The notes beneath the pieces were generated by a model. That model saw nothing but the letters and a program-made list of their open reading frames with translations, searched no databases and was not told the DNA's origin. The position numbers and the translations under genes were made by a program. DNA of 46,026 nt from an uncultured Kofleriaceae bacterium (GTDB taxonomy: Bacteria; Myxococcota_A; Polyangia; Haliangiales; Haliangiaceae): contig CAZUAR010000026.1 of the NCBI GenBank assembly GCA_964617845.1, positions 106,821 to 152,846 of the forward strand. Reading direction: 5' to 3'. Below, piece by piece: positions 27,522 through 46,026 of the stretch. The first letter of the stretch is position 1. The number at the start of each line of letters is the position of its first letter.

Positions 27522-27605
27522 CGTTACCTCCTGTCGGTGAAGACGGGGACCGCTCCGAAAGGACGCAGACTTTCGGCCTCGGTCGGCGCCGGTTGACGTC
27601 ATGCG

Positions 27606-27627
27606 GACATAACGATATCTGTATGTC
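27606..27627. promoter_or_regulatory. Candidate ArsR operator: perfect inverted repeat GACATA-N10-TATGTC in the arsM/arsC divergent region, overlapping the arsC start
   Basis: Read directly. It is the only AT-richer stretch in the 101-bp divergent intergenic region between arsM (start 27521, minus strand) and arsC (start 27623, plus strand). Confidence 0.4.
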
Positions 27628-28063: not shown

Positions 28064-28070
28064 GAGCGCG

Positions 28071-29110: not shown

Positions 29111-29332
29111 TCACGCGTGGCGCCGGCGCCACACCCACCGTCGACGAAGCACGCGGATCCGCGCTCGCGCGCAGCTATTCCCTCGGCGATCGTGGCGCAC
29201 GCGCCACACAGCAGCGCGTGCCATTGCTTGCCGCTGCGTAAGCTCGGCGCGCGAGCCACGATTCCCCCTCGAAGGACACGAGCCACGGCGTGCAACTGCA
29301 CGGCGATGCCTCCGTCCGGATCAGGGAGGCCC

Positions 29333-30088
29333 ATGCACGCAGCTCGACTCGCCACGCTCGCAGCCACGCTCGTATCCGTCGTGCTCGCGACCGCGACCGC
29401 TCAGGCGCGATCGCACGTGCCGCTGGATCCCCTCGATGACGAGGAGCCCGCCGCCACGACGAGCACGACCGAGGTCGCGGTGGCTCCGTCGCAATCGACA
29501 GATCGCGGCTGGCCGTTTCGCCTCGAAGGCGGCATCGGCATCCGGTGGGGCAGCTTCCTCATCAACAACATCGACGCGAAGGACACGGTCAAGCAGCTCC
29601 ACCTCGACGGTGGCCTTCGCTTCCGCAACCATCGCGTGTTCGTCTACGGACAGTACGCGCTGCAGTCGATGCAGATCCCGCTCGACGATCTCGCCGCGCG
29701 CGCCGGAACACCGGTCGCGATCGGCAACGGGCGCGGCCTCATGCACCGGCTCGCCGCGCACGGGCGCTACTCGTTCGCGCGCGCGGGCGAGAAGGACGGC
29801 GGCCTCGACCTCTTCGCCGACGCCGGCGTCGGCGTGCAGCACATCCGGTGGGACGCCGGCGGCGCGTGGACCCGCCCCGACCTGCAGCTCGCGCTCGGCA
29901 TCGCGGGGTTCGGCGTCGGTGACACGCAGCATGGCGGCATGTCGCTGTCGATGGTGCTCACGCTCGCGCCGCGCAACGACGTCATGGGCGCCGGGCGCGC
30001 GTGCGGTGGCCCGTGCGACTACGCGACCGAGCCGACCGGCTTCGATCGCAGCTTCATGTTCGACGTGACGCTGATGTTCGGAAAATGA
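29333..30088 (+). CDS. Secreted outer-membrane beta-barrel-like protein, function unknown
   Basis: ATG 29333 with AGGGAGG RBS. Signal peptide 'MHAARLATLAATLVSVVLATATAQA'. Alternating hydrophobic/aromatic strands with a terminal '...FDVTLMFGK' (aromatic near C-terminus). The ORF part upstream of that start is Arg-rich junk. Confidence 0.6.
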   Translation: MHAARLATLAATLVSVVLATATAQARSHVPLDPLDDEEPAATTSTTEVAVAPSQSTDRGWPFRLEGGIGIRWGSFLINNIDAKDTVKQLHLDGGLRFRNHRVFVYGQYALQSMQIPLDDLAARAGTPVAIGNGRGLMHRLAAHGRYSFARAGEKDGGLDLFADAGVGVQHIRWDAGGAWTRPDLQLALGIAGFGVGDTQHGGMSLSMVLTLAPRNDVMGAGRACGGPCDYATEPTGFDRSFMFDVTLMFGK

Positions 30089-30112
30089 AGACGCGGCGAC
30101 ATCGGACGCGGC

Positions 30113-30170
30113 GGCGTCGATAACCGCGGCGACGGCGTCGATAACCGCGGCGACGGCGTCGATGGCCGCC
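30113..30170. repeat. 21-bp tandem direct repeat (ggcgtcgataaccgcggcgac x2 plus partial third copy) between convergent genes
   Basis: Units at 30113-30133 and 30134-30154 are identical, and a diverged third unit starts at 30155. Confidence 0.8.
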
Positions 30171-30205
30171 GCCGTACGGTCTGACGGATCGGCGTGGACC
30201 CTGCC

Positions 30206-32188
30206 CTAGCTCGCGCGTGCTGACGATCCACCCTTGCGCGGGCGCGCGGCCTCGGCGAGCAGCTCCGCCGCGTGCGCCTTGGCCTTCGACGTCGCGTGAC
30301 CGCCGAGCATGCGCGCGAGCTCGTCCTTGCGCGCAGCGACCGTCAGCTTCTTCACGCGAGTCTCGGTGCGCCCGCCGACCTCCGCCTTCTCGACGTGGAA
30401 GTGCTGGTCCGCGAACGCGGCGATCTGCGGAAGGTGCGTGACGCACAGGACCTGCCGTCCGTGCGCGCCGGTCCCTCGGTCGCCGGCGACCGCGCGGATC
30501 TGCGAACCGACCACCTGCGCCGTCGCGCCGCCGATCCCGCTGTCGACCTCGTCGAACACGTACGTCGCCACGTGCTCCGCGCGCCCCGCGGACTGCAGGC
30601 CGAGCTTGAGCGCGAGCATGATGCGAGACAGCTCGCCACCTGACGCGATCTTCACGAGCGGTCGCGCGTCCTCGCCCTTGTTCGACGCCAGCAAGAGCTC
30701 GACGCGATCCGCGCCATGCGGCCCGAGACCTCGACGAACAGGACTCTTCGACTTCGCCCTGGTCGCGGTGTTGGTCGATGCGCCCGTCGGCGACGAGTCC
30801 TTCGTGGGTGCTGGGTTCGGCGAGCTGACGGACGCACTCGTCGATGCATCGGGTGCATCCGGTGTGTCGAGCGTCTCGATCGACACGTGCAGTCGCGCCG
30901 AGGCCATGCCGAGCTCCGCGAGCGCGGCGCCGACTTCCTTCTCCAGCTTGCGCGCCGCCTTCTTGCGACACGCGGTCAGCGCAGCCGCGGCCGACATCGC
31001 CGCGGCTTCTGCCTTGGTACGCGCGGCGAGCACCTCGGCGAGCGTGGCGTCACGCCCCGTGAGTGCGTCCAGCTCGGCGCGCAGCTGCGTTGCCTTGGCG
31101 AGGATCTCGTCGAGGTTCGCGGCCGCGTGCTTGCGCACGAGCCTGCGGATCAATGCGATGCGTTCGTCGAGGTACGCGAGTCGCTCGGGATCGCCCTCGA
31201 GCTTGTCCGCGTACGAGCGCAGCTGGTCGGCGGCGTCGTCGATCAGCGTCTCGATCTCGGCGAGCTGTTTCGCGATCGGCTCGAGCGTCGCGTCCGTGCG
31301 CATGCCGCGCTCGACCTCGCGCGCCGCCGCGGCGACCCGATCGCGGGCCGAGTCGTCACTGCCGTAGAGCACGTCCTCGGCCGCGCGGGCGGCGCCCTGG
31401 AGCAAGTCGACCGACGCGAGCCGGACGCGCTCGAGCTCGATGGTCTGATCCTCGCCCTCCGTGAACCCGGCGGCGTCGATCTCCTCGAGCTGGTAGCGCA
31501 AATAGTCGATGCGAGCCTCGCGCTCGCGCTCGTCGCCGCCGAGCGCGGCCAGGGCGTCGTCGCAGCGCCGCAGCTCGGTCCACGCGGCGGCCATGGCCTC
31601 GACGAGCGGCTCTGCGGCCCCGAACGCGTCGAGCAGATCGCGATGCCGCGATGGATCGACGAGGCCCTGGTGCTGGTGCTGACCCGACAGATCGACGAGC
31701 AGCGCGCCCAGCTCGGCGAGCCGCGCCGCGGTGGTCAGCGCGCCGTTGACGTACGTGCGCGAGCGACCGCCGCGCTGGATCACGCGTCGAATGAACACCT
31801 CGTCGGCGTCCCCGTCGCGATCGACATCGCCCGCGTCCCGCGAGGCGCTCCCACGCGAACCTTGCGACGCGTGCGAGCCTTGCGACGCGTGCGAACCTTG
31901 CGAACCTTGCGAACCGAGCCCGGGGAGCCCTGCTCCCTCGAGGACAGCGATCACGCGCTCGCGCAGATCCGCGGGCACCTCGACGATCGCCTCGACGACC
32001 GCTTCATCCGTCCCCGTGCGCGGGATGTCCGCGGAGGCGCGACCGCCGCGTAACAGGTTCACCGCCTCGACGATCAGCGACTTGCCGGCGCCCGTCTCGC
32101 CGGTGAGCACGTTCATCCCCGGGCCGAGCTCGATCTCGACGTCCGACAGGATCGCGAAGTTGGTCACGCGCAAGTGCCGCAGCATCAC
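30206..32188 (-). CDS. recN: DNA repair protein RecN (SMC-like ATPase) with low-complexity insertions
   Basis: Walker A 'GETGAGKS'. Signature and Walker B region 'KIASGGELSRIMLALK...YVFDEVDSGIGG'. Coiled-coil middle. Insertions 'GSQGSQGSHASQGSHASQGSRGS' and a Ser/Thr/Pro-rich segment lie ahead of the C-terminal head. Confidence 0.9.
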   Translation of the reverse strand: MMLRHLRVTNFAILSDVEIELGPGMNVLTGETGAGKSLIVEAVNLLRGGRASADIPRTGTDEAVVEAIVEVPADLRERVIAVLEGAGLPGLGSQGSQGSHASQGSHASQGSRGSASRDAGDVDRDGDADEVFIRRVIQRGGRSRTYVNGALTTAARLAELGALLVDLSGQHQHQGLVDPSRHRDLLDAFGAAEPLVEAMAAAWTELRRCDDALAALGGDEREREARIDYLRYQLEEIDAAGFTEGEDQTIELERVRLASVDLLQGAARAAEDVLYGSDDSARDRVAAAAREVERGMRTDATLEPIAKQLAEIETLIDDAADQLRSYADKLEGDPERLAYLDERIALIRRLVRKHAAANLDEILAKATQLRAELDALTGRDATLAEVLAARTKAEAAAMSAAAALTACRKKAARKLEKEVGAALAELGMASARLHVSIETLDTPDAPDASTSASVSSPNPAPTKDSSPTGASTNTATRAKSKSPVRRGLGPHGADRVELLLASNKGEDARPLVKIASGGELSRIMLALKLGLQSAGRAEHVATYVFDEVDSGIGGATAQVVGSQIRAVAGDRGTGAHGRQVLCVTHLPQIAAFADQHFHVEKAEVGGRTETRVKKLTVAARKDELARMLGGHATSKAKAHAAELLAEAARPRKGGSSARAS

Positions 32189-33144
32189 GCACCTCCCTTG
32201 GTAGGCGACGCCGGCGGCGTGCGTGCCGCCGACGAGTCCGCGCGCGCACCCCAGTGCAGCTTGTCGCGCATGACATCGAAGAAGGACTTGTCTCCCTGGT
32301 ACATCACGAGTGGCTTCGCGCGCGTGGTGACCTCGACGACGTCACCCGCGAGGAACGAGTGCCCCCACTGCGCGTCGACGGTGATCATCACGCCCCGCAC
32401 GTCCGCGCCGAGCTGCATGCGAATGGTCGCGTCCGCGCCGATCACGAGCGGACGGTTGGTCAGCGCGTGCGCGCAGATCGGCGTGAGCGTCATCGCCGCT
32501 TGATCCATGGAGCGGCCGGGCACGACGATCGGTCCGCCCGCGGCCATGTTGTAGGCGGTGCTCCCCGTGGGCGTGGCGACGAGCAAGCCGTCCGCGCGGT
32601 ACGAGGCGACGAACGCGTCATCGACGAACGCGTCGATCTCGACGATGCGAGCCATCGCGCCCTGGTGGAGCACGGCGTCGTTGAGCGCGTACTTCACGAC
32701 CGGCGCCGCGCCCTGCCGCCGGAACGTGACCGCGAGGCGCATGCGCTTGGTCAGCGGCAGGGTGCCCGCGAGCGCGGCGGCGAGGCCGGCCTTGGCCTCC
32801 GCCGGGGCCCACCCCGCGAGGAACCCGAGCTGCCCGAGGTTGACCCCGAGGACGGGCCGCTCCTGATCGGCCACGAGCCGCGCGGCGCGCAACATCGTGC
32901 CATCACCACCGAGGGCGACTGCGAGATCCACTGCCTCGCCCAGCTCGGACTCCGGGAGGACCTCCGCGCCGGCAGGGGCGATCTGGTCTTCCGCGGTGAC
33001 GACCGGGATATGGCCTTGTTCGCGCAACCATGGGACTAACTGCTCGAGGAGCGCGCCTGCCTCGGTCTTGTCCGGCTTGAGAATGAAACCGACTCTCGAC
33101 ACGCGCCGTTCGTACCACGCCCGCCTGACACTGAACGAATCCAC
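32185..33144 (-). CDS. nadK: NAD(+) kinase
   Basis: 'GGDGTML' ATP-NAD kinase motif, 'NDAVL' and 'DGLLVATPTGSTAYNMAAGGPIV'. Its stop overlaps the recN start (ATGA), the usual nadK-recN arrangement. Confidence 0.85.
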   Translation of the reverse strand: MDSFSVRRAWYERRVSRVGFILKPDKTEAGALLEQLVPWLREQGHIPVVTAEDQIAPAGAEVLPESELGEAVDLAVALGGDGTMLRAARLVADQERPVLGVNLGQLGFLAGWAPAEAKAGLAAALAGTLPLTKRMRLAVTFRRQGAAPVVKYALNDAVLHQGAMARIVEIDAFVDDAFVASYRADGLLVATPTGSTAYNMAAGGPIVVPGRSMDQAAMTLTPICAHALTNRPLVIGADATIRMQLGADVRGVMITVDAQWGHSFLAGDVVEVTTRAKPLVMYQGDKSFFDVMRDKLHWGARADSSAARTPPASPTKGGA

Positions 33145-33168
33145 AGGTCGGCATTACACGTTTGCGGC

Positions 33169-33197
33169 TTGACTACCTTTTCTCGGCCTTGTACACG
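33169..33197 (+). promoter_or_regulatory. Candidate sigma-70-type promoter for rplM-rpsI (TTGACT-N17-TACACG)
   Basis: Good -35 hexamer with 17-bp spacer, but the -10 is weak. It sits 24 bp upstream of the rplM ATG in the nadK/rplM divergent intergenic region. Confidence 0.3.
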
Positions 33198-33220
33198 ATC
33201 CGCCCCTTCCGAGTACTCCC

Positions 33221-33676
33221 ATGAACACGTTGACGACGCAGAAGAGCTCCTGGCTCACCAAAGAAGCCGGCGAGGCACAACGCGAATGGTTCGTGATCGA
33301 TGCGACCGGGCACACGCTCGGCCGCCTCGCCTCGCGGATCGCGCTGGTGCTCCGCGGCAAGCACAAGGCCACGTACACCCCCAACGTCGACATGGGTGAC
33401 TTCGTGATCGTTCTGAACGCGGGTGGCGTGCGCCTCACCGGTACCAAGCCGGACAAGAAGCTGTACCAGCACCACACGCTGTTCCCCGGCGGCATTCGCA
33501 CCCGCCTCGCCAAGGAAGTCCTCGCGGACGATCCCGAGCGCGCGATCCGCGAAGCGGTGTGGGGCATGTTGCCGAAGGGCCCGCTCGGCCGCCGCATCAT
33601 CAAGAAGCTCAAGATCTACAAGACCGCTGAACACGATCACGCCGCGCAGAAGCCGCGCACGCTGACGATCAACTAG
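33221..33676 (+). CDS. rplM: 50S ribosomal protein L13
   Basis: '[27 protein letters not shown]' L13 signature. 151 aa. Confidence 0.95.
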
Positions 33677-33695
33677 TAGAAGCGCGGAGAACATC

Positions 33696-34088
33696 ATGGC
33701 AACGCAGAAGACCTACGCCACCGGACGCCGCAAGACGGCCATCGCCCGCGTGTGGCTCACCGCCGGCGACGGCAAGATCACGATCAACGACCGCAGCGAC
33801 GAGGACTACTTCTCGCGCCCGACCGCGCGGATGGTCATCCGCCAGGGCCTCGAAGAGGTCTCGCTGCTCGGCCAGTACAACGTCGACGCCACGGTTCGCG
33901 GCGGAGGCATCTCGTCGCAGGCCGGCGCGATCCGCCACGGCATCACGCGCGCCCTCATGAAGATCGACTCGGACCTGCGTCCGAAGCTCAAGGCCGCGGG
34001 CTACGTCACGCGTGACCCGCGCAAGAAGGAGCGCAAGAAGTACGGTCAGAAGGCCGCGCGCGCTCGCTTCCAGTTCAGCAAGCGCTAA
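33696..34088 (+). CDS. rpsI: 30S ribosomal protein S9
   Basis: '[13 protein letters not shown]' and C-terminal '[22 protein letters not shown]' are the S9 signature. It lies 19 bp after rplM. Confidence 0.95.
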
Positions 34089-34107
34089 CCGGAACACTGC
34101 TCGCACC

Positions 34108-34140
34108 GACGCCGCGTCCACAGCGCGGCGTTTCGTCGTT
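34108..34140 (+). terminator. Rho-independent terminator after rpsI
   Basis: 8-bp perfect stem ACGCCGCG/CGCGGCGT with a 7-nt loop, followed by TTCGTCGTTT. It starts 20 nt after the rpsI stop. Confidence 0.6.
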
Positions 34141-34200
34141 TCGGCCGTCGTTTCGGTTTCGGCTCGGTTTCGGCCGTCGTTTCGACCGTCGTCTCGGCTC
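34141..34200. repeat. Degenerate short tandem repeats (cgtttcgg / gtttcggcc motifs)
   Basis: 'gtttcggccgtcgtttcggtttcggctcggtttcggccgtcgtttcgaccgtcgtctcgg' lies between convergent rpsI and the kinase gene. Confidence 0.6.
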
Positions 34201-34208
34201 TGGTCGGG

Positions 34209-35777
34209 TCACTTGCACGCGCGCGTGTAGCCGCGCGAGCACGCGGTCTCGCGTAGCTCTGCCGCGCGCGCTCGGTCCGCGGCGTCGCCGTGCTGGAGCA
34301 TGTCGGCCGCGTGGTAGCAGCCCGCGGGGTTCGTCGTGCACTGCCGCTCGTAGAGCTGCAACGCGCGCGCGCGATGCTCGGGCGACTCGGAGCTCAAGTG
34401 CTCCGCGAGGAGCGCGCACGCCGTCCCCGGCTCGAGCTCGCAGCCGCGCTCGAGGAGCTTCACCCACGCTTCGCGCGTGTAGCGCTTGTCGCCGTGGTTC
34501 GCGTTGCGGCGCACCCACTGGCCGGCGAGCACGCACGCGGACGCGTCGCCGAGCGTGCAGCCCTTGGACAGAAACTCGACGGCGACGAAGCGGCGCTCCT
34601 CGTTGCCGTCACTCGCGACGTACAGCTCGCGGCCGTAGAGGCGACACGCGATCGCCTCGTTCGCCTCGCACGCACGCTTGCAGGCATCGCCGCCTTGCTG
34701 CTGGCACGGGTGATTCGCGCGCGCGGACGCGGTCGACGTGCTCGCTCGGGTCGTGTCCGGTGTGCGCGTGGCGATCACGATGATCGTCACCGCGATCGCG
34801 ATCGCGAGCCCCACGGCGACGCTCGCGACGAACAGCGGGCGCCGCGCGCGCGACGGCCGCTCGAGCGCGGTCGGCTTCTCGACGCGCTCGGGGACCCACG
34901 ACGGGCGCTGCGCGAGCAAGTTCGACTCGCGGTTCGCGAGGTGTCGCTCGATCGCGCGCAGCTCGGCCTCGACCTGGCTCGCCTGCGCGGTGCGGCGCTC
35001 GGGCTCCTTCTCGAGCAGCGCCATGATCAGCGCGTCGAGGCGCACGGGCACCTCGTCGCGCAGCGAGCGCGCGGGCGGTGGATCGCGGAGCAGCAGCTGC
35101 GCGAGCACCTCCATGGTCTGCTTGCCCTCGAACGGCGGACGCCCCGTGCAGCACTCGTAGAGCAGCGCGCCGAGCCCGAACACGTCCATCGCGGCGGCGG
35201 GCGTGGCTGTGCCCATCGCTTGCTCGGGTGCCATGTAGCCCGGCGTGCCGATCAGCTGGCCGGTCTCGGTCAGCCCGTGCGTGACCGCGGTGTCCTTCGC
35301 GATGCCGAAGTCGATCAGCGTCGCGCGCGCGGGCTGGGAGTCGACGAGCATCACGTTGCTCGGCTTGACGTCGCGATGGACGATCGAGTGCGCGTGTGCG
35401 TGGGCGAGCGCGCCCGCGATGCGGATGCCGATCGCGAGCGTGTCCGCGATCGACAGCGGACCGCGGACGAGGCGCGTCGCGAGAGACTCGCCGTCGAGCC
35501 ACGCCATCGCGAGGTACGCCTCGCCCGAGCGTGTGACGCCGTGGCCGACGTACGCGACGATCGCGGGGTGGTCCATGCGCTCGAGCGTCTCGGCCTCGAG
35601 CGTGAACCGCGCCTCGACGCCCGGATCGCGCAGCACCTTGAGCGCGACGTGCGCGCCCGACTCGCGATCGATCGCGCGGTGCACGCGGCCCATGCCGCCC
35701 TCGCCGACCTTGTCGCCCACGTCGAAGCGCCGGGCGAACGTGTCGTCCGCAAGCACCGCCCGCAGGCCGTCGGCCAC
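34209..35777 (-). CDS. Ser/Thr protein kinase with TM segment and extracytoplasmic Cys-containing Sel1/TPR-like repeats
   Basis: Kinase motifs 'GEGGMGRVHRA', 'VALKVL', 'HRDVKPSNVML', 'DFG' and 'GTPGYMAPEQ'. TM 'LFVASVAVGLAIAIAVTIIVIA'. C-terminal repeats are of 'AC..L...Y..G' type. The start is uncertain: there is no in-frame ATG upstream of the G-loop, so I chose GTG at 35777. Upstream of that the ORF is antisense to the divergent sigma gene. Confidence 0.65.
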   Translation of the reverse strand: MADGLRAVLADDTFARRFDVGDKVGEGGMGRVHRAIDRESGAHVALKVLRDPGVEARFTLEAETLERMDHPAIVAYVGHGVTRSGEAYLAMAWLDGESLATRLVRGPLSIADTLAIGIRIAGALAHAHAHSIVHRDVKPSNVMLVDSQPARATLIDFGIAKDTAVTHGLTETGQLIGTPGYMAPEQAMGTATPAAAMDVFGLGALLYECCTGRPPFEGKQTMEVLAQLLLRDPPPARSLRDEVPVRLDALIMALLEKEPERRTAQASQVEAELRAIERHLANRESNLLAQRPSWVPERVEKPTALERPSRARRPLFVASVAVGLAIAIAVTIIVIATRTPDTTRASTSTASARANHPCQQQGGDACKRACEANEAIACRLYGRELYVASDGNEERRFVAVEFLSKGCTLGDASACVLAGQWVRRNANHGDKRYTREAWVKLLERGCELEPGTACALLAEHLSSESPEHRARALQLYERQCTTNPAGCYHAADMLQHGDAADRARAAELRETACSRGYTRACK

Positions 35778-35855
35778 CGCATCCGTGCGCAACTGCGCGA
35801 TCGTAGCACCGCCGATCTCCCGAAACGACCGCAACGAACCTGCGTAGGGGTGACC

Positions 35856-36617
35856 ATGGCTCTTCGATGGCGCATGGCGTCTGCGACCGCTGTTAACGTG
35901 GCGGCCGCGATCCCGATGACCCAGTTCCCGCCCACGATCCCCTCGGCCGTCCGCGACCTCGCGAGCTCGGATCGCGCGTCCCGCGAGCGCAGCATGAACA
36001 CGATCGCGTCCGTGTACTGGACGCCGATCTACAAGTACCTGCGCGTCCGCCACGGCAAGCCACCGGCCGAAGCAGAGGACATCCTCCAGAGCTTCTTCGC
36101 GCGCGTCGTCGAGGGCAGCGCGCTGCAGGGCCACGATCCGGCGCGCGCTCGCTTCCGAACGTTCTTGCGCCGCTCGGTCGATCACCACGTCATCGATATC
36201 TATCGCCGCCAGACCGCGGCGCGGCGCGGTGGTGCGCTCCCCAAGGTGGACGTCACCGACGCCGAGAACGAGCTCGCGACGCCACCAGTGCCCGAGGAGG
36301 TGTTCGATCGCGAGTGGCTCGCTCGCGTCGTGGCCCTCGCGGTCGAGCGCACGCTCGAGGCGCTCGCGCGCCGCGACAAGCCGGTGCACGCGGAGCTGTT
36401 CCGCCGGTTCCACCTCGCCGACGACGATCCGCCCGCCTATGCGCAGGTCGCGGCCGAGCTCGGCATCACGCCCGTCGACGTGACCAACTGGCTGCACGTC
36501 GCTCGGCGCGAGTTCCGCCGCGTCGCGCTCGCCCTGCTCCGCGAGCTGACCGCGACGCACGAGGAGTTCGTCGAGGAAGCGCGCGAGGTGTTCGGCATCA
36601 CCGTCGATGAAAGATGA
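35856..36617 (+). CDS. ECF-type sigma-70 family factor
   Basis: Region 2 'AEDILQSFFARVVEGSALQGHDPARARFRTFLRRSVDHHVIDIYRRQ'. Region 4 'YAQVAAELGITPVDVTNWLHVARREFRR'. ATG 35856 sits in the divergent intergenic region with the kinase gene. Confidence 0.7.
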   Translation: MALRWRMASATAVNVAAAIPMTQFPPTIPSAVRDLASSDRASRERSMNTIASVYWTPIYKYLRVRHGKPPAEAEDILQSFFARVVEGSALQGHDPARARFRTFLRRSVDHHVIDIYRRQTAARRGGALPKVDVTDAENELATPPVPEEVFDREWLARVVALAVERTLEALARRDKPVHAELFRRFHLADDDPPAYAQVAAELGITPVDVTNWLHVARREFRRVALALLRELTATHEEFVEEAREVFGITVDER

Positions 36618-36653
36618 TCGGTCACGTTTTCCGGGTGCGGTTTCTACATCCGC

Positions 36654-37439
36654 ATGCGTATCCCAACCTGGTTCGTGATCCCGTCCCTGCTCTTTGTCGT
36701 CGCGAGGACCGCTGATGCCGAGTGCTTGAAGTGGCACAGCAATATCTCGATGTGCGACACGAACCCTGCGCTGTGCGAGTCAGGGGCGCCGCCGCCCACG
36801 CATGGGCAGGAAGTCTTCTACTACGCGAGAGCGCTCACGGACACGCCGCAGGAGGCGTGCAAGAACCACAGAAAGTTCACGCTCGGCCTGGCCGACCCGG
36901 GAACAATCACCACGCAGCAATTCACAGCGAACGACGGCACGCCCGGAGTCTATTGCTATGCGGACGGCCAGTACTTCACCGCCCTCTGGTACCTGCCGTG
37001 GCCGCGCGAAGCAATGTGCGAGCGAACGCCGAACGGACCGTATCGAGACCTCGGGACCAGGGGCGTCGACGGCGGCCGCTTCACGGACGGTCAGAAGAAC
37101 GCGATCAAACAGGTCTGCCGCAAGGACAAGTTCGGGAACATGCGTTCCGATGCCGGTCCTGCGCGTCCCCCCGCGATCCTCAACGAGCAACACGACGTTC
37201 TCTCCAACAACGCGACGACATGGGCATGGCAGGACGACCTCTACATCCCGTACATCTGGGCCCCAGATGGCGCGAACGTCGACCACATCATCCCGCGCAA
37301 GGACAAGTACGGTTGCGGCTGCGGCCCGAACTCGTACGCGAACATGTTGATCGTTTCGTGGCAGGTGAACAACGCGATGAGCAACGACTCGGATAATCCT
37401 TCACGGCAGCAGATCCTGCAGCGGTGGACACTTCCTTGA
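36654..37439 (+). CDS. Secreted Cys-rich protein with C-terminal HNH/beta-beta-alpha-Me-like nuclease motif; atypically low GC
   Basis: Signal peptide 'MRIPTWFVIPSLLFVVARTADA'. Twelve Cys. C-terminal 'VDHIIPRKDKYGCGCGPNSYANMLIVSWQVNNAMSN' fits D-H-x2-P...N-[LM]-x7-N. GC is about 60% against about 72% in the flanks, and rare codons AGA, ACA, GGA and AAT are used. Confidence 0.55.
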   Translation: MRIPTWFVIPSLLFVVARTADAECLKWHSNISMCDTNPALCESGAPPPTHGQEVFYYARALTDTPQEACKNHRKFTLGLADPGTITTQQFTANDGTPGVYCYADGQYFTALWYLPWPREAMCERTPNGPYRDLGTRGVDGGRFTDGQKNAIKQVCRKDKFGNMRSDAGPARPPAILNEQHDVLSNNATTWAWQDDLYIPYIWAPDGANVDHIIPRKDKYGCGCGPNSYANMLIVSWQVNNAMSNDSDNPSRQQILQRWTLP

Positions 37440-37502
37440 ACGAGAGGTCAAAAGCCACGCGGGCCGACTGCGTACGAGATCACGAACCAGCCAGGAGTGT
37501 TC

Positions 37503-38309
37503 ATGCGTCTCGTCCTCTGCGCGGCCCTCGCCAGCGCCGTGTTTGCCCCCGCCCTCGCGCGCGCCGATCAGTGCGCCATCAACGACCAGGCGATCGCCGA
37601 CAAAGCGGTCGAGCTGGCGAAGAAGAGCACCGCGATGCTCGAGCTGTGCGAGCCGTGCGGCGAGAAGCAGCCGCACGGGCCGTATCCGATCGGCACCGTC
37701 GACGGCGCGAACGGACGCGTGACGTTCGACGGCGCGCTGCGCGACCTCGCGTACACGTACATCCTCGTCGGCAAGAACACGTATCAGAACCTCGGGCTGC
37801 TCGCGGGCTGCAGCGCCGCGCGCGTCTCGAAGGAGCTGATCGATACGCGACCGGTGCGCTCGCGCCCCGTGCGCCCGTCGTCGAACCAGGGCGGGCTCGG
37901 GCGGCCCGGTCCACCGCCGCGCCCGCCGATCTCTCGCACGCGCGTCACCAAGCCCGAGGATCTCGCGGGCACGTGGACCGTGACCGTGCGGCCGAGCCTG
38001 TCGACGTGCAAGGCGCCCGCGAAGACCCACACGGAGACCTGGGTCATCACCGTCGACAACGGCGCGGACATCGTCGTCAACCAGGGCACCGGCGCCGATG
38101 ACTTCGTCGGCACGCAGAGCACGCTGGAGCGGGGCCAGTTCCAGCCGAAGCTCTCGACGAAGAACCGCCCGAGCGCCAACGTCCTCCAGATCACGCAATC
38201 GATGAAGGACCTGTTCTGGGGAAAGATCGCGCGCGCCGAGTCGACGGGCATCAAGGGCGATCCGGCCTGTCTGACCGCCGTCGACGTGTCGGGTACCCGC
38301 GTCCCATGA
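37503..38309 (+). CDS. Secreted hypothetical protein with Pro-rich linker
   Basis: ATG 37503 with AGGAG 5 nt upstream. Signal peptide 'MRLVLCAALASAVFAPALARA'. Normal high-GC codon usage. No recognisable domain. Confidence 0.55.
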   Translation: MRLVLCAALASAVFAPALARADQCAINDQAIADKAVELAKKSTAMLELCEPCGEKQPHGPYPIGTVDGANGRVTFDGALRDLAYTYILVGKNTYQNLGLLAGCSAARVSKELIDTRPVRSRPVRPSSNQGGLGRPGPPPRPPISRTRVTKPEDLAGTWTVTVRPSLSTCKAPAKTHTETWVITVDNGADIVVNQGTGADDFVGTQSTLERGQFQPKLSTKNRPSANVLQITQSMKDLFWGKIARAESTGIKGDPACLTAVDVSGTRVP

Positions 38310-38388
38310 CCTTGTTGCGCAACTTGTACCGGCGCGGTGCTGTCGTCGTGAAATCGCACCAGCGCGCGTTTTGGTGCACGCTAGGGCC

Positions 38389-38760
38389 ATGCCGCTGACC
38401 AACGCCAAGCCGGTCGCGTTCATCGCGACCACGAAGCCCGCCGAGGCCACCACGTTCTACCGCGACGTGCTCGGCCTCAGGCTCGTCGAGGAGACCGGGT
38501 TCGCGCTCGTGTTCGACGCGTTCGGCATCATGCTGCGCGTGCAGAAGGCGCCCGAGGTCCACCCGCCGACGTACACCGCGTTCGGCTTCGAGGTGAAGGA
38601 CCTCGACGCCAACGTGAAGGCGCTGATCGCGAAGGGCGTGTCGATCCTCAAGCCCGAGGGCATGGATCTCGACCCGAACGGCGTGTGGACGGCGCCGACC
38701 GGCACGCGCGTGTTCTGGTTCTACGACCCCGAAGGCCACGTCCTCTCGCTCTCGCAGTAG
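38389..38760 (+). CDS. VOC family protein (glyoxalase/bleomycin-resistance/dioxygenase fold)
   Basis: 'FYRDVLGLRLVEE', 'GFALVFDAFGIMLRVQKAPEV' and the 'FWFYDPEGHVLSLSQ' C-terminus are typical VOC beta-alpha-beta-beta-beta modules. Confidence 0.75.
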   Translation: MPLTNAKPVAFIATTKPAEATTFYRDVLGLRLVEETGFALVFDAFGIMLRVQKAPEVHPPTYTAFGFEVKDLDANVKALIAKGVSILKPEGMDLDPNGVWTAPTGTRVFWFYDPEGHVLSLSQ

Positions 38761-38768
38761 GCTGTGGC

Positions 38769-40184
38769 GTGCGCTTTCGCGCGCCGATCCTGGTCAAGCT
38801 GCTCGTCGCGCTGGTGCTGCCGGCGCTGGTGCTGTTCACCGTGTTCGCGTTCGTCGCGTACGAGGTGAGCCGCCGCGATCTCGACGAGGAGGTCGGTCGC
38901 CGCCTCGAGGCGATCGCCGCGAGCGCATCGACGACCGTGCGAGGCAAGTACGTCGAGGAGCTCGCGCCCGGCGACGAGGGCGAGCGCGCGCATCAGAACT
39001 ACGTCAACAAGCTGAAGGTGCTCGAGCTCGCGACGGGCGCGCACCTCTACATGTTCGACAAGTCGTTCAACAGCCGGCTCGACACCGACCCCACGATCCC
39101 GATCGGCACGCACTACTATCACGTCGAGCTCGATCGCACCGAGCTCGCGCGCGTGTTCGACAAGGGCGAGACCGTCGCGTCGGTCACGTTCGAAGGCAAC
39201 GACGGCAAGACGTACAAGGCCGGCTACGCACCCGTCCGCGCCGAGCTCGACGGTGGACCGATCGTCCTCGCGATCGCGGCGCAGGCGCCGGCTCGCTACT
39301 TCGACCGCCTCGCGGATCTGCGTGGCCGCCTGTTTCTGTGGGGCGGCGGCCTGTTGCTCGTCAGCATCGCAGCCGCCGTCATCGCGAGCCTCCTCGTCAC
39401 GCGCAACGTGCGGCGCCTGGCGAGCGCGGCCGAGCGCATCGGCGCCGGCGATCTGCGCGAGCCGGTCAAGGCGCACTCGCACGACGAGCTCGGCGTGCTC
39501 GCGCAGACCATGGACCGCATGCGCGGCCAGCTCGCCGAGCGCGACGCGCGCATGCAGCAGATGCTCGCCGGCATCGCGCACGAGGTGCGCAACCCGCTCG
39601 CGGGCATGACGCTGTTCGCCGGCATCCTGCAGGACGAGCTGCCCGAGGGCGACGAGCGCCGCGGCCACGTCGACCGCATCCGCAAGGAGCTCGGCTACCT
39701 CGAGCGCGTGGTCAACGAGTTCCTCGAGTTCGCGCGCCGCCCGCGCCCCGAGCTCGCGCCGGTCCCGATGCGCGAGCTACTCGAGGAGATCGCGCAGCTC
39801 GCGAGCACGGAGAAGGTGCGCGTCGCCGTCACGCTTCTCGAGGACGTCACCGCGAACGCGGACCGCGCCCAGCTCCGGCGCGCGGTCTTGAACCTCGCGC
39901 GCAACGCGGTACAGGCGGCGATCGCCGCGGATCAGGAGGGCGAGGTGGTGCGGCTCTCCGCGCGCACCGAGGGAGACTCGCTCGCGATCGCGGTGTGGAA
40001 CCGCGGCAAGGAAATCTCGCCGGAGACCTCCGGCAAGCTGTTCGAGCCGTTCTACACGACGCGCGAGAAGGGCACGGGCCTCGGCCTCGCCTTCGTGCGC
40101 GAGATCGCGCTCGACCACGGCGGCCGCATCGACGTCACGAGCGCCGAGGGCGAGACCACGTTCACCATCGTGATCCCGGCGTAG
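38769..40184 (+). CDS. Sensor histidine kinase (TM, periplasmic sensor domain, TM, HAMP, HisKA, HATPase_c)
   Basis: GTG 38769 lies 8 nt after the VOC stop. H-box 'AGIAHEVRNPLAG'. N-box 'LNLARNAVQA'. G-boxes 'TREKGTGLGLAFVREI' and 'GETTFTI'. Two TM segments flank a periplasmic domain of about 150 aa. Confidence 0.8.
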   Translation: MRFRAPILVKLLVALVLPALVLFTVFAFVAYEVSRRDLDEEVGRRLEAIAASASTTVRGKYVEELAPGDEGERAHQNYVNKLKVLELATGAHLYMFDKSFNSRLDTDPTIPIGTHYYHVELDRTELARVFDKGETVASVTFEGNDGKTYKAGYAPVRAELDGGPIVLAIAAQAPARYFDRLADLRGRLFLWGGGLLLVSIAAAVIASLLVTRNVRRLASAAERIGAGDLREPVKAHSHDELGVLAQTMDRMRGQLAERDARMQQMLAGIAHEVRNPLAGMTLFAGILQDELPEGDERRGHVDRIRKELGYLERVVNEFLEFARRPRPELAPVPMRELLEEIAQLASTEKVRVAVTLLEDVTANADRAQLRRAVLNLARNAVQAAIAADQEGEVVRLSARTEGDSLAIAVWNRGKEISPETSGKLFEPFYTTREKGTGLGLAFVREIALDHGGRIDVTSAEGETTFTIVIPA

Positions 40185-40202
40185 CCGTTTAGTGATAGGA
40201 AC

Positions 40203-41579
<1,377 letters not shown>

Positions 41580-41580
41580 C

Positions 41581-41690
41581 GCGACCGAGCGCGACCGAGC
41601 GCGACCGAGCGCGACCGAGGACGACCGCGGGACCGAGGACGACCGCGGGACCGAGGACGATCGAGGGCGACCGGGGACGATCGAGCGCTG
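41581..41690. repeat. Nested short tandem repeats: (gcgaccgagc)x4, (acgaccgcgggaccgagg)x2, (acgatcgag)x2
   Basis: Read directly after the response-regulator stop. The region is non-coding by composition. Confidence 0.8.
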
Positions 41691-41781
41691 GCGTCACAGT
41701 TCTTCACGTTGCTCCTCGGGCAACGGTGAGTTCGACGCGAGCCGGGTACCGAATCAGCGATGCGAGCGGTACTGAGTCCGC

Positions 41782-42399
41782 ATGCCGGACTACACGCTCT
41801 ACTTCTCGCCGAGCGCGTGCTCGCTCTCGCCCCACATCGTGCTCGCGGAGGTCGGCGCGAGCTACGCGGTCGAGCGTGTGGACCTGAAGAACAAGAAGCT
41901 GGCGAACGGCGGTGATTGGCTCGCGATCAACCCCAAGGGGTACGTCCCTGCCCTCGTGATCCCGTCGGGCGACATCATCACTGAGGGCGCGGTGATCGTG
42001 CGCTACCTCGCCGACCAGTTCCCGGATGCGAAGCTCGCGCCGCCCAACGGCACGCTCGAGCGCGTGCGCCTCGACGAGTGGCTGCACTTCATCGCGACCG
42101 AGATCCACAAGGGCATGAGCCCGCTCTACAAGACGATCGCCGGCGATGACTTCAAGAAGAACCTGCGCGAGGTCGTGCTCCCCGCGCGTTTCGCGACGCT
42201 CGCCGCCGCCGTGAAGCCATACCTCCTCGGCGCGCAGTTCACCGTCGCGGACGCGTACGCCTTCTACGTGCTGCGCTCGTGGATCCACCACCAGAAGCAA
42301 ACCCTCGACGCGTGGCCCACACTCGTCGAGTACTACCAGCGACTCGCGCAGCGCCCGTCCGTCCAGAAGGCGCTCGCCGAGGAGGGAATCTCCGCATGA
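41782..42399 (+). CDS. Glutathione S-transferase
   Basis: The N-terminal thioredoxin-like domain has 'LYFSPSACSLSPHIVLAEVG' (active-site Ser/Cys region). The C-terminal helical domain has 'AYAFYVLRSW'. 205 aa. Confidence 0.85.
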   Translation: MPDYTLYFSPSACSLSPHIVLAEVGASYAVERVDLKNKKLANGGDWLAINPKGYVPALVIPSGDIITEGAVIVRYLADQFPDAKLAPPNGTLERVRLDEWLHFIATEIHKGMSPLYKTIAGDDFKKNLREVVLPARFATLAAAVKPYLLGAQFTVADAYAFYVLRSWIHHQKQTLDAWPTLVEYYQRLAQRPSVQKALAEEGISA

Positions 42400-42785
42400 C
42401 CCGACTCGAAGACGCCTCCTGGGCCGCGCTGCGCATCGTCGCGGGCTTCATGTTCCTGTTTCACGGCGCGCAGAAGATCCTCGGGGTGCTCACGACCAAG
42501 GCGCCTCCCGAAGCGTTCACGCAGAAGTGGGTCGGTGGCGTGATCGAGCTCGTCGGCGGTGCGCTGATCGCGATCGGCCTGTTCACACGGCCAGCCGCCT
42601 TCATCGCCTCGGGCACGATGGCCGTCGCGTACTTCCAGTTCCACTGGAAGATGCAGGGCGGCGCGCAGCTCTTGCCGATCGGCAACGGAGGCGAGCTCGC
42701 GGTGCTCTACTGCTTCGTGTTCCTCGCGATCGCGGTCAAAGGCGCGGGCGTCGCGTCGATCGATCGCGTCCTCGGACGCGCGTGA
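42396..42785 (+). CDS. DoxX family membrane protein
   Basis: ATG overlaps the GST stop (ATGA). Four hydrophobic helices. 'LRIVAGFMFLFHGAQKI' is DoxX-like. Confidence 0.75.
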   Translation: MTRLEDASWAALRIVAGFMFLFHGAQKILGVLTTKAPPEAFTQKWVGGVIELVGGALIAIGLFTRPAAFIASGTMAVAYFQFHWKMQGGAQLLPIGNGGELAVLYCFVFLAIAVKGAGVASIDRVLGRA

Positions 42786-42968
42786 ACCGCGTTTCGCGCA
42801 CTGGTCAAATCCACCACTTTCGAATTGTAATGGGGTCCGACCCCAACCGACGCGCGAAATGGTCGAATCCACCACTTCTGTCCAGCGCGTTGGACGCTTG
42901 TCCAGCCGGCGGACACGCGGACGCGTCACTCGGGACACGTGTCCAGCCGGCGGACACGTCGGCCGCGG

Positions 42969-43814
42969 TCACTTCGCTTTCTTGCCGACGTGCTTCTCGA
43001 CAGCCTCGCGGACGAGCTTGCCGTCGCCCGGGGCGATCGTGCTCGACGATGTCACGACGACCTCGCGGCCCTTGATCGCGACGCTCGCCTTGCCCTTCTG
43101 CGCCTTCTTGTAGGTGCAGCGCAGGCCGTCGAGCTTCTTGCGGACCGCGTCCTTGTGATCGCGGCACACGTCGCTCATCCCCGACGCGTAGATGCTGCAC
43201 ATCTCGCCGATGTCGAGCGCCTTGGGGATGTTGTTGCCGCTGTCACCGGCGGCCTTCCACGACGCGATGTCGATCGTCAGCTTCGCGTCGTCGCCGCACC
43301 GCTTCTTGAGGCCCTCGGCCGCCTTCGGTGCGTCGACGTTCTCGAGATCCCACTCCCGCTTCGCGTCCGCGATCCCTTGGAACGCCGGACTTGCATGCAA
43401 GAGCCTGGGCGCGTCGCCCGTCGGCGAGTAGCCCGGGACGCGCGTGAACACGACGATGCCCTTCTCGATCGTCACCTTCTCCTCGGACTTGTTGTTGTCG
43501 GGCAACAGCCCGCACTTGACCGCCGTCACCTTCGCCTTCACGAACGCCTGACCGGCCGGGTGTGCGGTGCCCTGGTCGTTCAGGCACGCGGCGCGGATCG
43601 CGTCCATGATCGGCGCGCAGTCCTGCGCCTTCGCGTTCGCCTTCTCCCACGCGGCCCAGTCGGGCGCGACGAGCGTGATCGAGGTGCCGCAGCTCGTGTT
43701 GAGCTTCGCGAGCGCCTGGTTCAGATCCGCTTGCAGCCTGTCGCGATACGACTCGGCGCTCGCCGAGGACACGCACACCACGATCGCGAACGCGCACCAC
43801 TTCGCATGCAGCAT
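42969..43814 (-). CDS. Secreted Lys-rich, Cys-containing hypothetical protein
   Basis: ATG 43814 with AGGAGG 6 nt upstream. Signal peptide 'MLHAKWCAFAIVVCVSSASA'. Ten Cys. No known domain. Confidence 0.55.
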   Translation of the reverse strand: MLHAKWCAFAIVVCVSSASAESYRDRLQADLNQALAKLNTSCGTSITLVAPDWAAWEKANAKAQDCAPIMDAIRAACLNDQGTAHPAGQAFVKAKVTAVKCGLLPDNNKSEEKVTIEKGIVVFTRVPGYSPTGDAPRLLHASPAFQGIADAKREWDLENVDAPKAAEGLKKRCGDDAKLTIDIASWKAAGDSGNNIPKALDIGEMCSIYASGMSDVCRDHKDAVRKKLDGLRCTYKKAQKGKASVAIKGREVVVTSSSTIAPGDGKLVREAVEKHVGKKAK

Positions 43815-43890
43815 CGTCGCCTCCTGCGCGAATCGTACCGCGGAGCCGCCTCGCCTCGCTGCGCTCGTAACGTCTCTCGCGCGGCGCCGG

Positions 43891-44220
43891 CTATTCGGGG
43901 TTCTCGGGACGGTCGGTCGCGCTACCGGCACCACTGCCGCTGGCGGTCAGCGCCCGACGGCACGCCTGGAGCTCCGCTTCGAACGCCTTGCCCTTCTTGT
44001 CCTGCTCGGCGGTCGGCTTCGCGTCCTTGTCGAGCTTGTCGCGCATCGTCTTCTTGTAGTCGAGGCGCGCTTGCGAGACGCGGTCGGCGCACGCGGTGTC
44101 CTGGCACGCGCACATCTCGGTCTTGAACTTCTCGAGCTGGCCGAGGATCTCGTCGAACTTGTCGTTACCGCCCTTGCACCCGATCACCACCAGCCCGAGG
44201 ACGATCGCCAGCGAACGCAT
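43891..44220 (-). CDS. Small lipoprotein
   Basis: 'MRSLAIVLGLVVIGC' lipobox. Helical and Lys-rich with 4 Cys. It sits immediately upstream of the 42969..43814 gene on the same strand. Confidence 0.5.
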   Translation of the reverse strand: MRSLAIVLGLVVIGCKGGNDKFDEILGQLEKFKTEMCACQDTACADRVSQARLDYKKTMRDKLDKDAKPTAEQDKKGKAFEAELQACRRALTASGSGAGSATDRPENPE

Positions 44221-44229
44221 ATCGCGATC

Positions 44230-45159
44230 CTAGCAGTCGGACGATGACGGCGCTTGGTACGTGTCCTTGGCCCACGCGAGAAACTGCTCGCCCGGTAGCT
44301 CCAACGCTTTGCGGCACAGCTCGCCGACGTGGATCGGAAAGTCTTTCTCCAGGACCCAGCGCAAGAAGCTGCGATCCGGACCGGCCGCGAGCTCGTGCAG
44401 GGGCGCGTTCAGATACTTCCCGAACCCGACGACGATGACCTCGCCATCCCAGCGCAGGTGCCGCGTCGGGCCGACCCAGCTCGCGCGCTCGGCGAGCATG
44501 GACGCGCCATGGCGAGAGAGCGTGGGATCGCACTTCTGCGCGATCTCCGCCCAGTCGGCGCCGGCGAGGCCGTAGTGCTTGAGCATCCCCGAGAGCACGC
44601 GTCCGGTCGCCGCCACGTCGGCGCTCGCGGTGTGCGCCGAGGCGAAGCCTTCACCGACGAACTTCTGATGCGCGTTCTGGAGGCTGCGCGGCTCGAACTG
44701 CTGCCACAGGCGATACGCGTCGACGATCTTCTTCTGGGACAGGTCGAGCCACGGACGTCCGATGCGCGCGTACTCGGCCTGGAGCATGTCGATGTCGAAC
44801 GTGAGGTTGTAGCCGACGATCACCTCCGCGCTGTCGAACACGGCGGCGATCTCGTCGGCGAGCTCCGCGAACGTGGGGCACGCGGCGAGGTCTTCCTCGG
44901 AGATGCCGTGGACAGCGCGGGCACCCGGGTGGATCGGGGTCTGGGGCTTGATGCGCCAGACCTGGTTGGGCGCGTGATCCTCGAGGCCGTGCTGCACGCA
45001 CAGCTCGATCACCTGGTCGCGCGTGCGGTCGGTCCCCGTGGTCTCGCAGTCGAAGACCACGACGCGCGCCGGCTGCACGATCGGGGCGCTGCCCTCGGCC
45101 AGCGCCGGCGCCGGCGCGGACGACTCTCGCCAATCGAGCAGGGACAACGTGCCTTCCAC
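44230..45159 (-). CDS. DEDDh 3'-5' exonuclease (DnaQ/epsilon-like) with ~110-aa C-terminal extension
   Basis: Exo I 'VVFDCETTG'. Exo II 'VVGYNLTFDIDML'. Exo III 'HTASADVAATGRV'. Confidence 0.75.
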   Translation of the reverse strand: MEGTLSLLDWRESSAPAPALAEGSAPIVQPARVVVFDCETTGTDRTRDQVIELCVQHGLEDHAPNQVWRIKPQTPIHPGARAVHGISEEDLAACPTFAELADEIAAVFDSAEVIVGYNLTFDIDMLQAEYARIGRPWLDLSQKKIVDAYRLWQQFEPRSLQNAHQKFVGEGFASAHTASADVAATGRVLSGMLKHYGLAGADWAEIAQKCDPTLSRHGASMLAERASWVGPTRHLRWDGEVIVVGFGKYLNAPLHELAAGPDRSFLRWVLEKDFPIHVGELCRKALELPGEQFLAWAKDTYQAPSSSDC

Positions 45160-45229
45160 ACGCCGACTCTAGGTGTCCCCTCTGACAGCCACTCCGGACC
45201 CGGGATCGGCCAAGATCCAAGCGATCGAA

Positions 45230-45868
45230 ATGCTTTACCATCGCGACGTGCGATCGCTGCTCGTGCTCGGCCTCCTGGTCGCCTGCAAGGCGAACGAACC
45301 GCCGCCCATCACCGGCGCCTGGTACGACGGGTTCGAGCGCGAGTCACTCGGACCGAACTGGTCGGCGACCGGCGACGGCTATCGGATCGACGCGGGACAG
45401 GTCAACGCGAAGGGCGCGCACAACCATCCGCTGTGGCTGCGCAAGAAGCTGCCGCGCAACGTGCGCATCGAGTTCGACGCGTGGTCGACCGAGCAGCGCG
45501 GGGATATCAAGGTCGAGGTGTTCGGCGACGGCTCGTCGTACGACCCGGACGGCAACCGCTACATGGCGACCGGCTACGAGGTGATCTTCGGCGGCTGGCA
45601 CAACTCGAAGTCGATCATCGCGAGGCTCGACGAGCACGGGAACGATCTCGTCCAGCGATCGGACGTCAAGGTTATTCCCGGAAAGCACTATCACTGGCGG
45701 ATCGATCGCAAGGACACGAAGGTGACGTGGTTCATCGACGACATGTCCAAGCCGTTCCTCGAGCTCGACGACAAACAACCCCTCGAGAAGGAGGGGCACG
45801 AGTATTTCGCGCTCAACAACTGGGAGACCGATACGTGGTTCGACAACCTCGTGATCACCCCACTCTGA
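45230..45868 (+). CDS. Lipoprotein, beta-rich, function unknown
   Basis: ATG 45230 gives 'MLYHRDVRSLLVLGLLVAC' (lipobox). Trp/Asp-rich beta-strand pattern. Confidence 0.55.
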   Translation: MLYHRDVRSLLVLGLLVACKANEPPPITGAWYDGFERESLGPNWSATGDGYRIDAGQVNAKGAHNHPLWLRKKLPRNVRIEFDAWSTEQRGDIKVEVFGDGSSYDPDGNRYMATGYEVIFGGWHNSKSIIARLDEHGNDLVQRSDVKVIPGKHYHWRIDRKDTKVTWFIDDMSKPFLELDDKQPLEKEGHEYFALNNWETDTWFDNLVITPL

Positions 45869-46026
45869 GCCGACGGCGTTCCGTGTAGCCCAGCGCTTCG
45901 CGAGGCGATTGGTGCCGCCGCTCGGCTGTCAGGCGAGCGGCCCTCGACGCCGACGGCGTTCCGTATAGCCGAGCGCTTCGCGAGGCGATTGGTGCCGCCG
46001 CTCGGCTGTCAGGCGAGCGGCCCTCG
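45869..46026. repeat. 78-bp direct repeat x2 (2 mismatches) with internal 8-bp stem, truncated by window end
   Basis: Copy 1 at 45869-45946 and copy 2 at 45949-46026: 'gccgacggcgttccgt[g/a]tagcc[c/g]agcgcttcgcgaggcgattggtgccgccgctcggctgtcaggcgagcggccctcg'. Each contains GCCGCTCG...CGAGCGGC. Confidence 0.85.

Follow-up and report, generated by a model that had tools for sequence, protein, structure and literature searches.

The window analysed here is a 46,026-nt stretch of contig CAZUAR010000026.1 (assembly GCA_964617845.1, positions 106,821 to 152,846 of the forward strand) from an uncultured Kofleriaceae bacterium. Between a gene for an extracytoplasmic function (ECF)-type sigma factor and a gene that we call gene B, the window holds gene A, the subject of this analysis (Table 1). 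We consider it probable that the product of gene A, hereafter A, is a Sec-exported, disulfide-stabilised HNH nuclease of a small Myxococcota family, encoded by a single-gene insertion and unrelated to the product of gene B.

Table 1. Gene A, its parts and the surrounding genes, in window coordinates
Feature	Position (nt)	Strand	Remarks
Gene A	36654..37439	+	261-aa precursor, very likely exported HNH (His-Me finger) protein; stop codon included
Predicted signal peptide, residues 1-22	36654..36719	+	MRIPTWFVIPSLLFVVARTADA, followed by EC; no other segment is strongly hydrophobic; signal peptidase I is predicted to cut after A-D-A
Family-specific N-terminal alpha+beta domain, residues 23-117	36720..37004	+	Conserved C24, C34, C41, C69, C101
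HNH module, residues 118-261	37005..37436	+	hhalign link to P0114; conserved R-E-x-x-C122-x-x-x-P-x-G-P-Y and S165-D166 ahead of the core
Catalytic beta-beta-alpha-metal core, residues 206-244	37269..37385	+	Putative roles: D210 metal ligand, H211 general base, N230 structural, N239 helix metal ligand
Lineage-specific inserted segment	36618..37446	+	About 829 bp: 36-nt leader, gene A and 7 nt past its stop codon
Gene B	37503..38309	+	268 aa; alternative GTG start at 37497
ECF-type sigma factor gene	35856..36617	+	Directly 5' of gene A; Pfam Sigma70_r2 at 26 bits (cut-off 24)
Ser/Thr protein kinase gene	34209..35777	-	Pfam Pkinase, 4.1e-41; divergent from the sigma gene; pairing kept in relatives
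Glyoxalase-fold protein gene	38389..38760		Pfam
HAMP/HisKA sensor kinase gene	38769..40184		Pfam
Sigma-54 activator gene	40203..41579		Pfam

An earlier note, made from the letters of the window, had described the open reading frames (ORFs) of gene A and gene B, and both exist as described. Three independent sequencing runs gave identical contigs, on which the gene callers place the same gene models in the same order, so the arrangement from the kinase gene to the sigma-54 activator gene is not an assembly artefact. The identical A protein (P0001) is found on contigs from the 3 runs.

The HNH module of gene A

The C-terminal part of A contains the motif D210-H211-I-I-P ... N230-M-x7-N239, with D210 starting at nt 37281. 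Conservation was read from an alignment of 122 A-family sequences, and the AlphaFold2 model of A was built on the same alignment. H211 and N230 are invariant (122/122 each), while P214 and N239 are kept in 99%, N244 in 96% and D217 in 95% of the sequences. Position 210 holds D in 81% and H in 17%, that is, D or H in 98%. Such an alternation is expected for a metal-holding residue beside the general base of HNH enzymes.

The AlphaFold2 model has a predicted local distance difference test score (pLDDT) of 91.5 and a predicted template modelling score (pTM) of 0.85. In this model, H211 closes the strand 206-211, N230 lies just before the strand 231-235, and N239 sits inside the helix 236-242. The predicted structure thus shows the two-strand hairpin followed by a helix by which the HNH/His-Me finger fold is recognised. 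The earlier note had proposed an HNH/beta-beta-alpha-Me signature here, to be checked by fold and conservation, and the modelled beta-beta-alpha unit together with the invariant His and Asn bears this proposal out.

The curated HNH models (Pfam HNH, HNH_4 and HNH_5) do not match A, and its membership at the sequence level is transitive through another protein, P0114 (locus L026, 418..1320). phmmer connects the two proteins (E 7.6e-5), and P0114 exceeds the Pfam cut-offs for HNH_4 (2.3e-15), HNH_5 and HNH. Aligning the 53-sequence family profile A4 with P0114 by hhalign gives a probability of 95.7% and E 8.9e-9 over query residues 125-248. P0114 is built from a 132-aa unit, homologous to A residues 125-248, that occurs twice in tandem; its best scores are those with HNH_4 and with the Cas9 and IscB models of NCBIfam. 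It is free of Cys and has no signal peptide. P0114 has the appearance of a cytoplasmic relative of the exported module; it adjoins an acetyltransferase-like gene, and this context is uninformative.

Two weaker signals lie in the same direction. The A-family protein P0088 reaches 18.7 bits against the HNH cut-off of 21.4. The family profile has a sole match among PDB sequences, the HNH domain of a Cas9 (7enh_A, E 0.29), in which evDHIIPr...NsyaNAlvIS..lN..msN is aligned with EVDHIIPR...NSFNNKVLVKQEENSKKGN. We place the HNH module at approximately residues 118-261 because of the conservation, the predicted structure and the bridge through P0114. Judged from sequence and model, the C-terminus of A is a genuine HNH/beta-beta-alpha-Me module.

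By its sequence, the closest motif type for A is that of Cas9/IscB/HNH_4. The HNH domain of Cas9 and IscB (PF13395) and T4 endonuclease VII have a motif near-identical to that of A, V-D-H-I-I/V-P ... N ... N, and the Cas9 HNH domain likewise has no CxxC...CxxC zinc finger. In contrast to the Cas9/IscB domain, A is very likely exported rather than cytoplasmic, and it stands alone rather than being embedded in an RNA-guided enzyme. It also carries a five-residue GCxCG insertion and a Cys-containing N-terminal domain, and falls below the HNH_4 threshold. No sequence match was found in A to the HNH group DUF1524/GmrSD (PF07510), to which putative extracellular nucleases of His-Me group 3 belong.

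Family, export and cysteines of gene A

A word-indexed search of 5.8 billion proteins returned 12 relatives of A, all unnamed or called 'hypothetical protein', the nearest being 45-48% identical. Exhaustive phmmer against 1.84 billion cluster representatives gave 128 A-family representatives at E<=1e-3, and a third round of searching, run with profile A4, brought in just 1 more protein. Within the window there is no second copy of the family. Scanning the GTDB genomes for the family gave 23 pattern matches and 0 confirmed members, and a degenerate DNA pattern for DHI[IV]PRxDxxGCxCG found 5 stretches in 4 metagenome-assembled genomes among 185,579 species-representative genomes. The labels of these 4 read Myxococcota, Myxococcales, 'delta proteobacterium' and Proteobacteria; at these loci the family gene lies near contig ends, leaving little context. 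Comparisons of A with known structures gave noise, both by phmmer against PDB sequences (MsrB and ADAMTS-5, E 0.16 or worse) and by Foldseek against PDB, where nothing had E below 0.29 and the list was dominated by HIV reverse transcriptase. We conclude that the family of gene A is small and unannotated, its named genome hits all being Myxococcota or 'delta proteobacterium' assemblies. It would be a new family and architecture within the secreted His-Me finger nucleases.

The N-terminus of A combines a basic residue and a hydrophobic core with an A-x-A site, and it has no lipobox. Over 11-residue stretches, the Kyte-Doolittle score peaks at 2.7 (residues 7-17), with values of 0.95 or less elsewhere, and pLDDT is low over residues 1-20. 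In the homologues, the N-termini are of the same kind and the conserved Cys comes next. The cleavable signal peptide named in the earlier note therefore stands as a signal-peptide-like N-terminus that makes export very probable, with cleavage predicted after A22.

A sorting signal occurs at the other end of many relatives. Of the 122 aligned sequences, 39 end in G-G-C-S-x-G-G, a hydrophobic helix and R-R-R-R. On the NCBIfam model TIGR03901 (MYXO-CTERM; cut-off 20 bits), P0015 reaches 24.5 bits, while 7 other relatives stay just below, at 15-19 bits. A itself stops at the conserved ...QRWTLP, without a tail and without a TIGR03901 match. MYXO-CTERM is a tag specific to Myxococcota; tagged proteins reach the cell surface through Sec and the type II secretion system, and TraA without its tag is released to the medium (PMC11980579). 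The tagged relatives of A would thus be displayed on the surface through MYXO-CTERM and myxosortase, and the untagged copy of the window would be released. The words 'nuclease' and 'HNH' are both absent from the myxosortase paper (PMC11980579). Given the signal-peptide-like N-terminus of A and its MYXO-CTERM relatives, an extracytoplasmic location is very likely.

The combination of a nuclease module with a sorting tag of Cys, transmembrane helix and Arg-rich end has a parallel in Shewanella ExeM and in the clients of GlyGly-CTERM and rhombosortase. Those enzymes have other nuclease folds, of the endonuclease/exonuclease/phosphatase (EEP)/LTD type in ExeM and Xds. Nucleases are mentioned in work on GlyGly-CTERM/rhombosortase (PMC3237569), and ExeM is the subject of PMC6085458. 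The tag in the A family differs, being MYXO-CTERM with myxosortase (PMC11980579) instead of GlyGly-CTERM, and the window copy is untagged.

Instead of the 12 Cys counted in the earlier note, A has 9, at positions 24, 34, 41, 69, 101, 122, 155, 221 and 223. C24, C69, C101, C122, C221 and C223 are near-invariant in the family, while C34 and C41 co-vary, with both present in 63 sequences and neither in 28. These eight conserved Cys are enough for four disulfides in an exported protein, and we infer from the sequence that they would pair among themselves. The ninth, C155 (codon 37116..37118), is peculiar to the window copy, the position being Asn in 106/122 relatives. Compared with the classical HNH hairpin (..DHIIPxxKGG--NSyaN..), the hairpin loop of A has an insertion of five residues with an almost invariant G-C221-x-C223-G. 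Thus, the earlier description of a core without the usual zinc-binding Cys pairs holds for the CxxC...CxxC zinc finger, which is missing, and fails for the loop, which does carry two Cys.

Insertion of gene A and the position of gene B

In order to define the insertion, we compared the window with five independent loci of relatives that have no gene A (L016, L012/L013, L014/L015, L027 and L028-L030). These loci are collinear with the window on both sides at 78-91% nucleotide identity. By blastn, an identity of 84-91% extends to about 36599-36607 and resumes at 37445-37468 or later. Nothing in the five relatives matches 36608..37444 by blastn, and tblastn with A is also empty there. In all five, the sigma gene is followed directly by gene B after a spacer of 55-80 bp, and this spacer aligns to 37447..37502 of the window, i.e. 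to the 3' side of gene A. The missing match together with the alignment of the spacer therefore defines 36618..37446 as the extra segment.

The state without gene A is found in L016 and L028, which have the gene order of the window, and in L012 and L014, which carry an extra 358-aa gene between the kinase and sigma genes. Because the absence spans both gene orders, a single gain is more parsimonious than repeated exact losses. Divergence also points to a gain: the nearest homologue of A is only 45-48% identical, whereas the sigma protein is 88-91% and B 62-75% identical to the orthologues. No repeats or mobile-element remnants flanking the insert were found beyond chance. We also considered the longest inverted repeat, with one arm where gene A begins and the other in the gene B leader (36651..36684 and 37474..37507; 34 nt, 74% complementary), as an insertion scar or regulatory hairpin. 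It was discarded as being at chance level, since dinucleotide shuffles reached the real best inverted-repeat score in 44/100 and 110/150 cases.

The composition of gene A is distinct in a limited way. Its guanine-plus-cytosine (GC) content of 61.8% is the lowest among the 34 ORFs of the window (z = -2.7), and that of the inserted segment is 61.6%, against 69.8% and 68.8% in its 5-kb flanks. The low-GC islet of the earlier note is thus real, with flanks of 69-70% rather than 72%. The shortfall falls mostly on codon positions 1 and 2, i.e. on the amino-acid composition, since N, T, D, K and Y are abundant in the protein. GC at third codon positions (GC3) stands at 0.82 (z = -1.5), with z = -1.2 for the codon-usage log-score, values so mild that several native genes are equally deviant. 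The codons cited earlier as rare are few (AGA 2, ACA 4, GGA 3 and AAT 2), and GGA is not truly rare in the background. We conclude from sequence comparison that gene A is a recent lineage-specific gain. This agrees with the acquisition proposed in the earlier note; the case comes mainly from synteny, and the codon argument is minor.

Gene B has the composition of a native gene, with GC 69.8% and GC3 0.92. Behind a signal-peptide-like N-terminus, its product comprises two domains joined by a Pro-rich linker, the first with Cys and the C-terminal one a beta-barrel of 8 strands. It has no match in Pfam, NCBIfam, PHROG or PADLOC. The native codon usage and the lack of a known domain are as the earlier note described them. 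Homologues of B are many and 62-75% identical. Its suggested role as a partner or inhibitor of A was rejected. B always stands directly 3' of the sigma gene in the five relatives without gene A, and the six other A-family contexts examined (L004, L007, L010, L022 and L024 among them) contain no B homologue and no shared neighbour. Being present without A and absent from other A loci, B is not a dedicated partner. Over seven A contexts, no adjacent gene is conserved. The constant position of B after the sigma gene suggests that it belongs to the sigma regulatory module.

Some members of the B family, of approximately 212 aa (alignment A3, P0161-P0174), keep the N-terminal Cys domain and have the barrel swapped for a hydrophobic helix with an R-R-R-R-x-M-R-P-R-A tail. 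To judge from this tail, such members would be membrane-anchored.

The divergent pair of the Ser/Thr kinase and sigma genes (34209..36617) is kept at 84-91% identity in L012, L014, L016, L027 and L028, and presumably resembles the kinase-linked ECF sigma groups. The sigma protein has 253 aa and is 88-91% identical to the sigma proteins of L012 and L016; Sigma70_r2 is its only match, just over the cut-off. The sigma stop codon is 36 nt from the start of gene A. A scan of 35600..38900 gave no promoter-like or terminator-like site, and an Rfam scan of the whole window (1..46026) gave no family at gathering score. Genes A and B are probably co-transcribed with the sigma gene, by way of its transcription.

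A conserved cassette of ECF sigma, kinase and HNH genes was also considered and is regarded as unproven. Sigma genes are nearby in 3/7 A contexts; these sigmas are mutually unrelated, and the kinases share only the kinase domain. In L022 (5001..6392), an ECF sigma gene follows 30 bp downstream of an A homologue, and in L004 (646..6840) another homologue lies 4.6 kb from a sigma and Ser/Thr kinase pair. Neither of these sigmas has BLAST similarity to that of the window. Sigma genes near A homologues may reflect their abundance in Myxococcota.

Other single genes come and go at this locus. The 358-aa gene between kinase and sigma is found in L012 (4021..5097), L013 and L014 (883..1959) and is absent from the window, L016 and L028. 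In L012 only, a 521-aa TIG-domain gene (8879..10444) lies between the sensor kinase and sigma-54 activator genes. As far as these comparisons go, the locus appears to tolerate single-gene gains and losses. The 358-aa gene and a 398-aa gene of L004 were examined as possible kin of A or B and have no similarity to either.

Proposed activity and alternative explanations

We propose the following model for the product of gene A. The precursor would be cut after A22, and the eight conserved Cys (C24, C34, C41, C69, C101, C122, C221 and C223) would oxidise outside the cytoplasm, with C221 and C223 in the catalytic hairpin loop presumably tethering the hairpin to the remainder of the protein. H211 would activate water, D210 and N239 would hold Mg2+ or another divalent ion, and N230 would brace the hairpin, as the corresponding residues do in Cas9 HNH and T4 endonuclease VII. 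In the periplasm or the medium, the enzyme would then cleave nucleic acid without much specificity. In the reducing cytoplasm it would be inactive, folding only if oxidised, so that the producer would need no immunity protein. Gene A itself came into the locus alone, in an insertion of about 0.83 kb that now separates the ECF sigma gene from gene B. Its ecological role may be the scavenging of nutrients from extracellular DNA or prey, the remodelling of matrix, or a barrier to foreign DNA. Activity in the oxidised state only is a known means of self-protection for the secreted His-Me nucleases Vvn/EndoI and for Serratia nuclease (PMC5714182).

Several observations weigh against this model. Scans of A with Pfam, NCBIfam, PHROG and PADLOC gave no significant model, Pfam giving nothing even at E<=10, and the match of the family profile to Cas9 (E 0.29) is below threshold. 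No Shine-Dalgarno-like sequence lies 5' of the gene A ATG. After four presumed disulfides, C155 is an odd ninth Cys and possibly a free thiol. Moreover, C221 and C223 could bind Zn together with two other Cys instead of forming disulfides.

Among the alternatives, we leave a small chance that A works like Vvn/EndoI, staying in the periplasm and degrading incoming DNA as a barrier or uptake nuclease. Vvn uses a His general base with Asn and Glu-water ligands. Endonuclease I, Vvn and EndA (PF04231) share an outline with A, in that they have a signal peptide, several Cys, a beta-beta-alpha-metal site and no immunity gene, and the biology of Vvn/EndoI (PMC5714182) suits such a design. However, there is no detectable kinship in sequence, with no match of A to Endonuclease_1 (PF04231), and neither the active-site residues nor the topology that surrounds the core are alike. 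The A family is of Myxococcota, whereas Endonuclease I is mainly gammaproteobacterial. In addition, approximately one third of the relatives of A carry MYXO-CTERM, which leads to the cell surface and not to the periplasm.

It is improbable, in our judgement, that A is a toxin, i.e. an HNH DNase for competition or predation that is delivered into other cells and neutralised by an immunity protein, B or another. The horizontal mobility of gene A and the patchy, divergent family would suit a toxin. Against this, no adjacent gene is conserved in the seven contexts, and B is present without A in five relatives and itself looks exported. The protein is 261 aa long with a plain signal peptide, and it has no receptor-binding, translocation, Rhs, type VI secretion or contact-dependent-inhibition-type region at the N-terminus; the N-terminal domain (about 95 aa) matches no delivery domain, and no toxin family of PADLOC or Pfam matches A. 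In colicins E7/E9 and S-type pyocins, an H-H...N...H motif with a transition-metal site goes together with a neighbouring immunity gene and with domains for receptor binding and translocation; A shows none of these features. As judged from gene neighbourhoods, the missing conserved immunity-like neighbour favours a housekeeping extracellular nuclease over a toxin.

A similarly low probability is given to an inactive module, which would bind nucleic acid or another ligand as part of an exported protein with an adhesive or structural task. Access to the site could be blocked by the N-terminal domain and by the GCxCG insertion of the loop, which is large and conserved, and A scores under every curated HNH model. 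Nevertheless, over 122 divergent sequences the catalytic positions are kept at 100% (H211 and N230), 99% (N239) and 98% (D or H at 210), and such strong conservation is expected of active enzymes (PMC5714182, 'Active site variation'). Least probable of all, an original gene A deleted in the relatives would suit the GC3 and codon scores, which lie inside the range of native genes, and the missing scars and flanking repeats, but it demands at least two precise independent deletions instead of one gain to clear all five relatives and sits badly with the divergence gap and with the lowest GC in the window.

Beyond the secreted nuclease that we prefer, we offer as a speculation, with little expectation that all of it holds, that the A family consists of immunity-free, redox-gated HNH effectors specific to Myxococcota, which would sit on the cell surface in their MYXO-CTERM forms or be released in untagged forms such as that of the window, and would destroy the nucleic acids of prey or rivals in predation or competition. 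The newly captured window copy would be wired to the ECF sigma and Ser/Thr kinase module for envelope signalling, and the N-terminal domain would be a new DNA-binding or built-in regulatory, pro-domain-like element.

The catalytic principle and the strategy of self-protection proposed for A are already known, and current understanding would not be overturned. If the model of an exported HNH nuclease is true, a family that is unannotated and restricted to Myxococcota would join the secreted His-Me finger nucleases, and HNH nucleases would be among the proteins routed by the MYXO-CTERM/myxosortase pathway. It would provide a further example of disulfide gating in place of an immunity protein, and the insertion of gene A into the sigma-factor operon would be a clean example of promoter capture by an acquired gene. 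Our findings would then aid the annotation of myxobacterial secretomes and the thinking on how extracellular DNA and the DNA of prey are dealt with by predatory or saprophytic Myxococcota.

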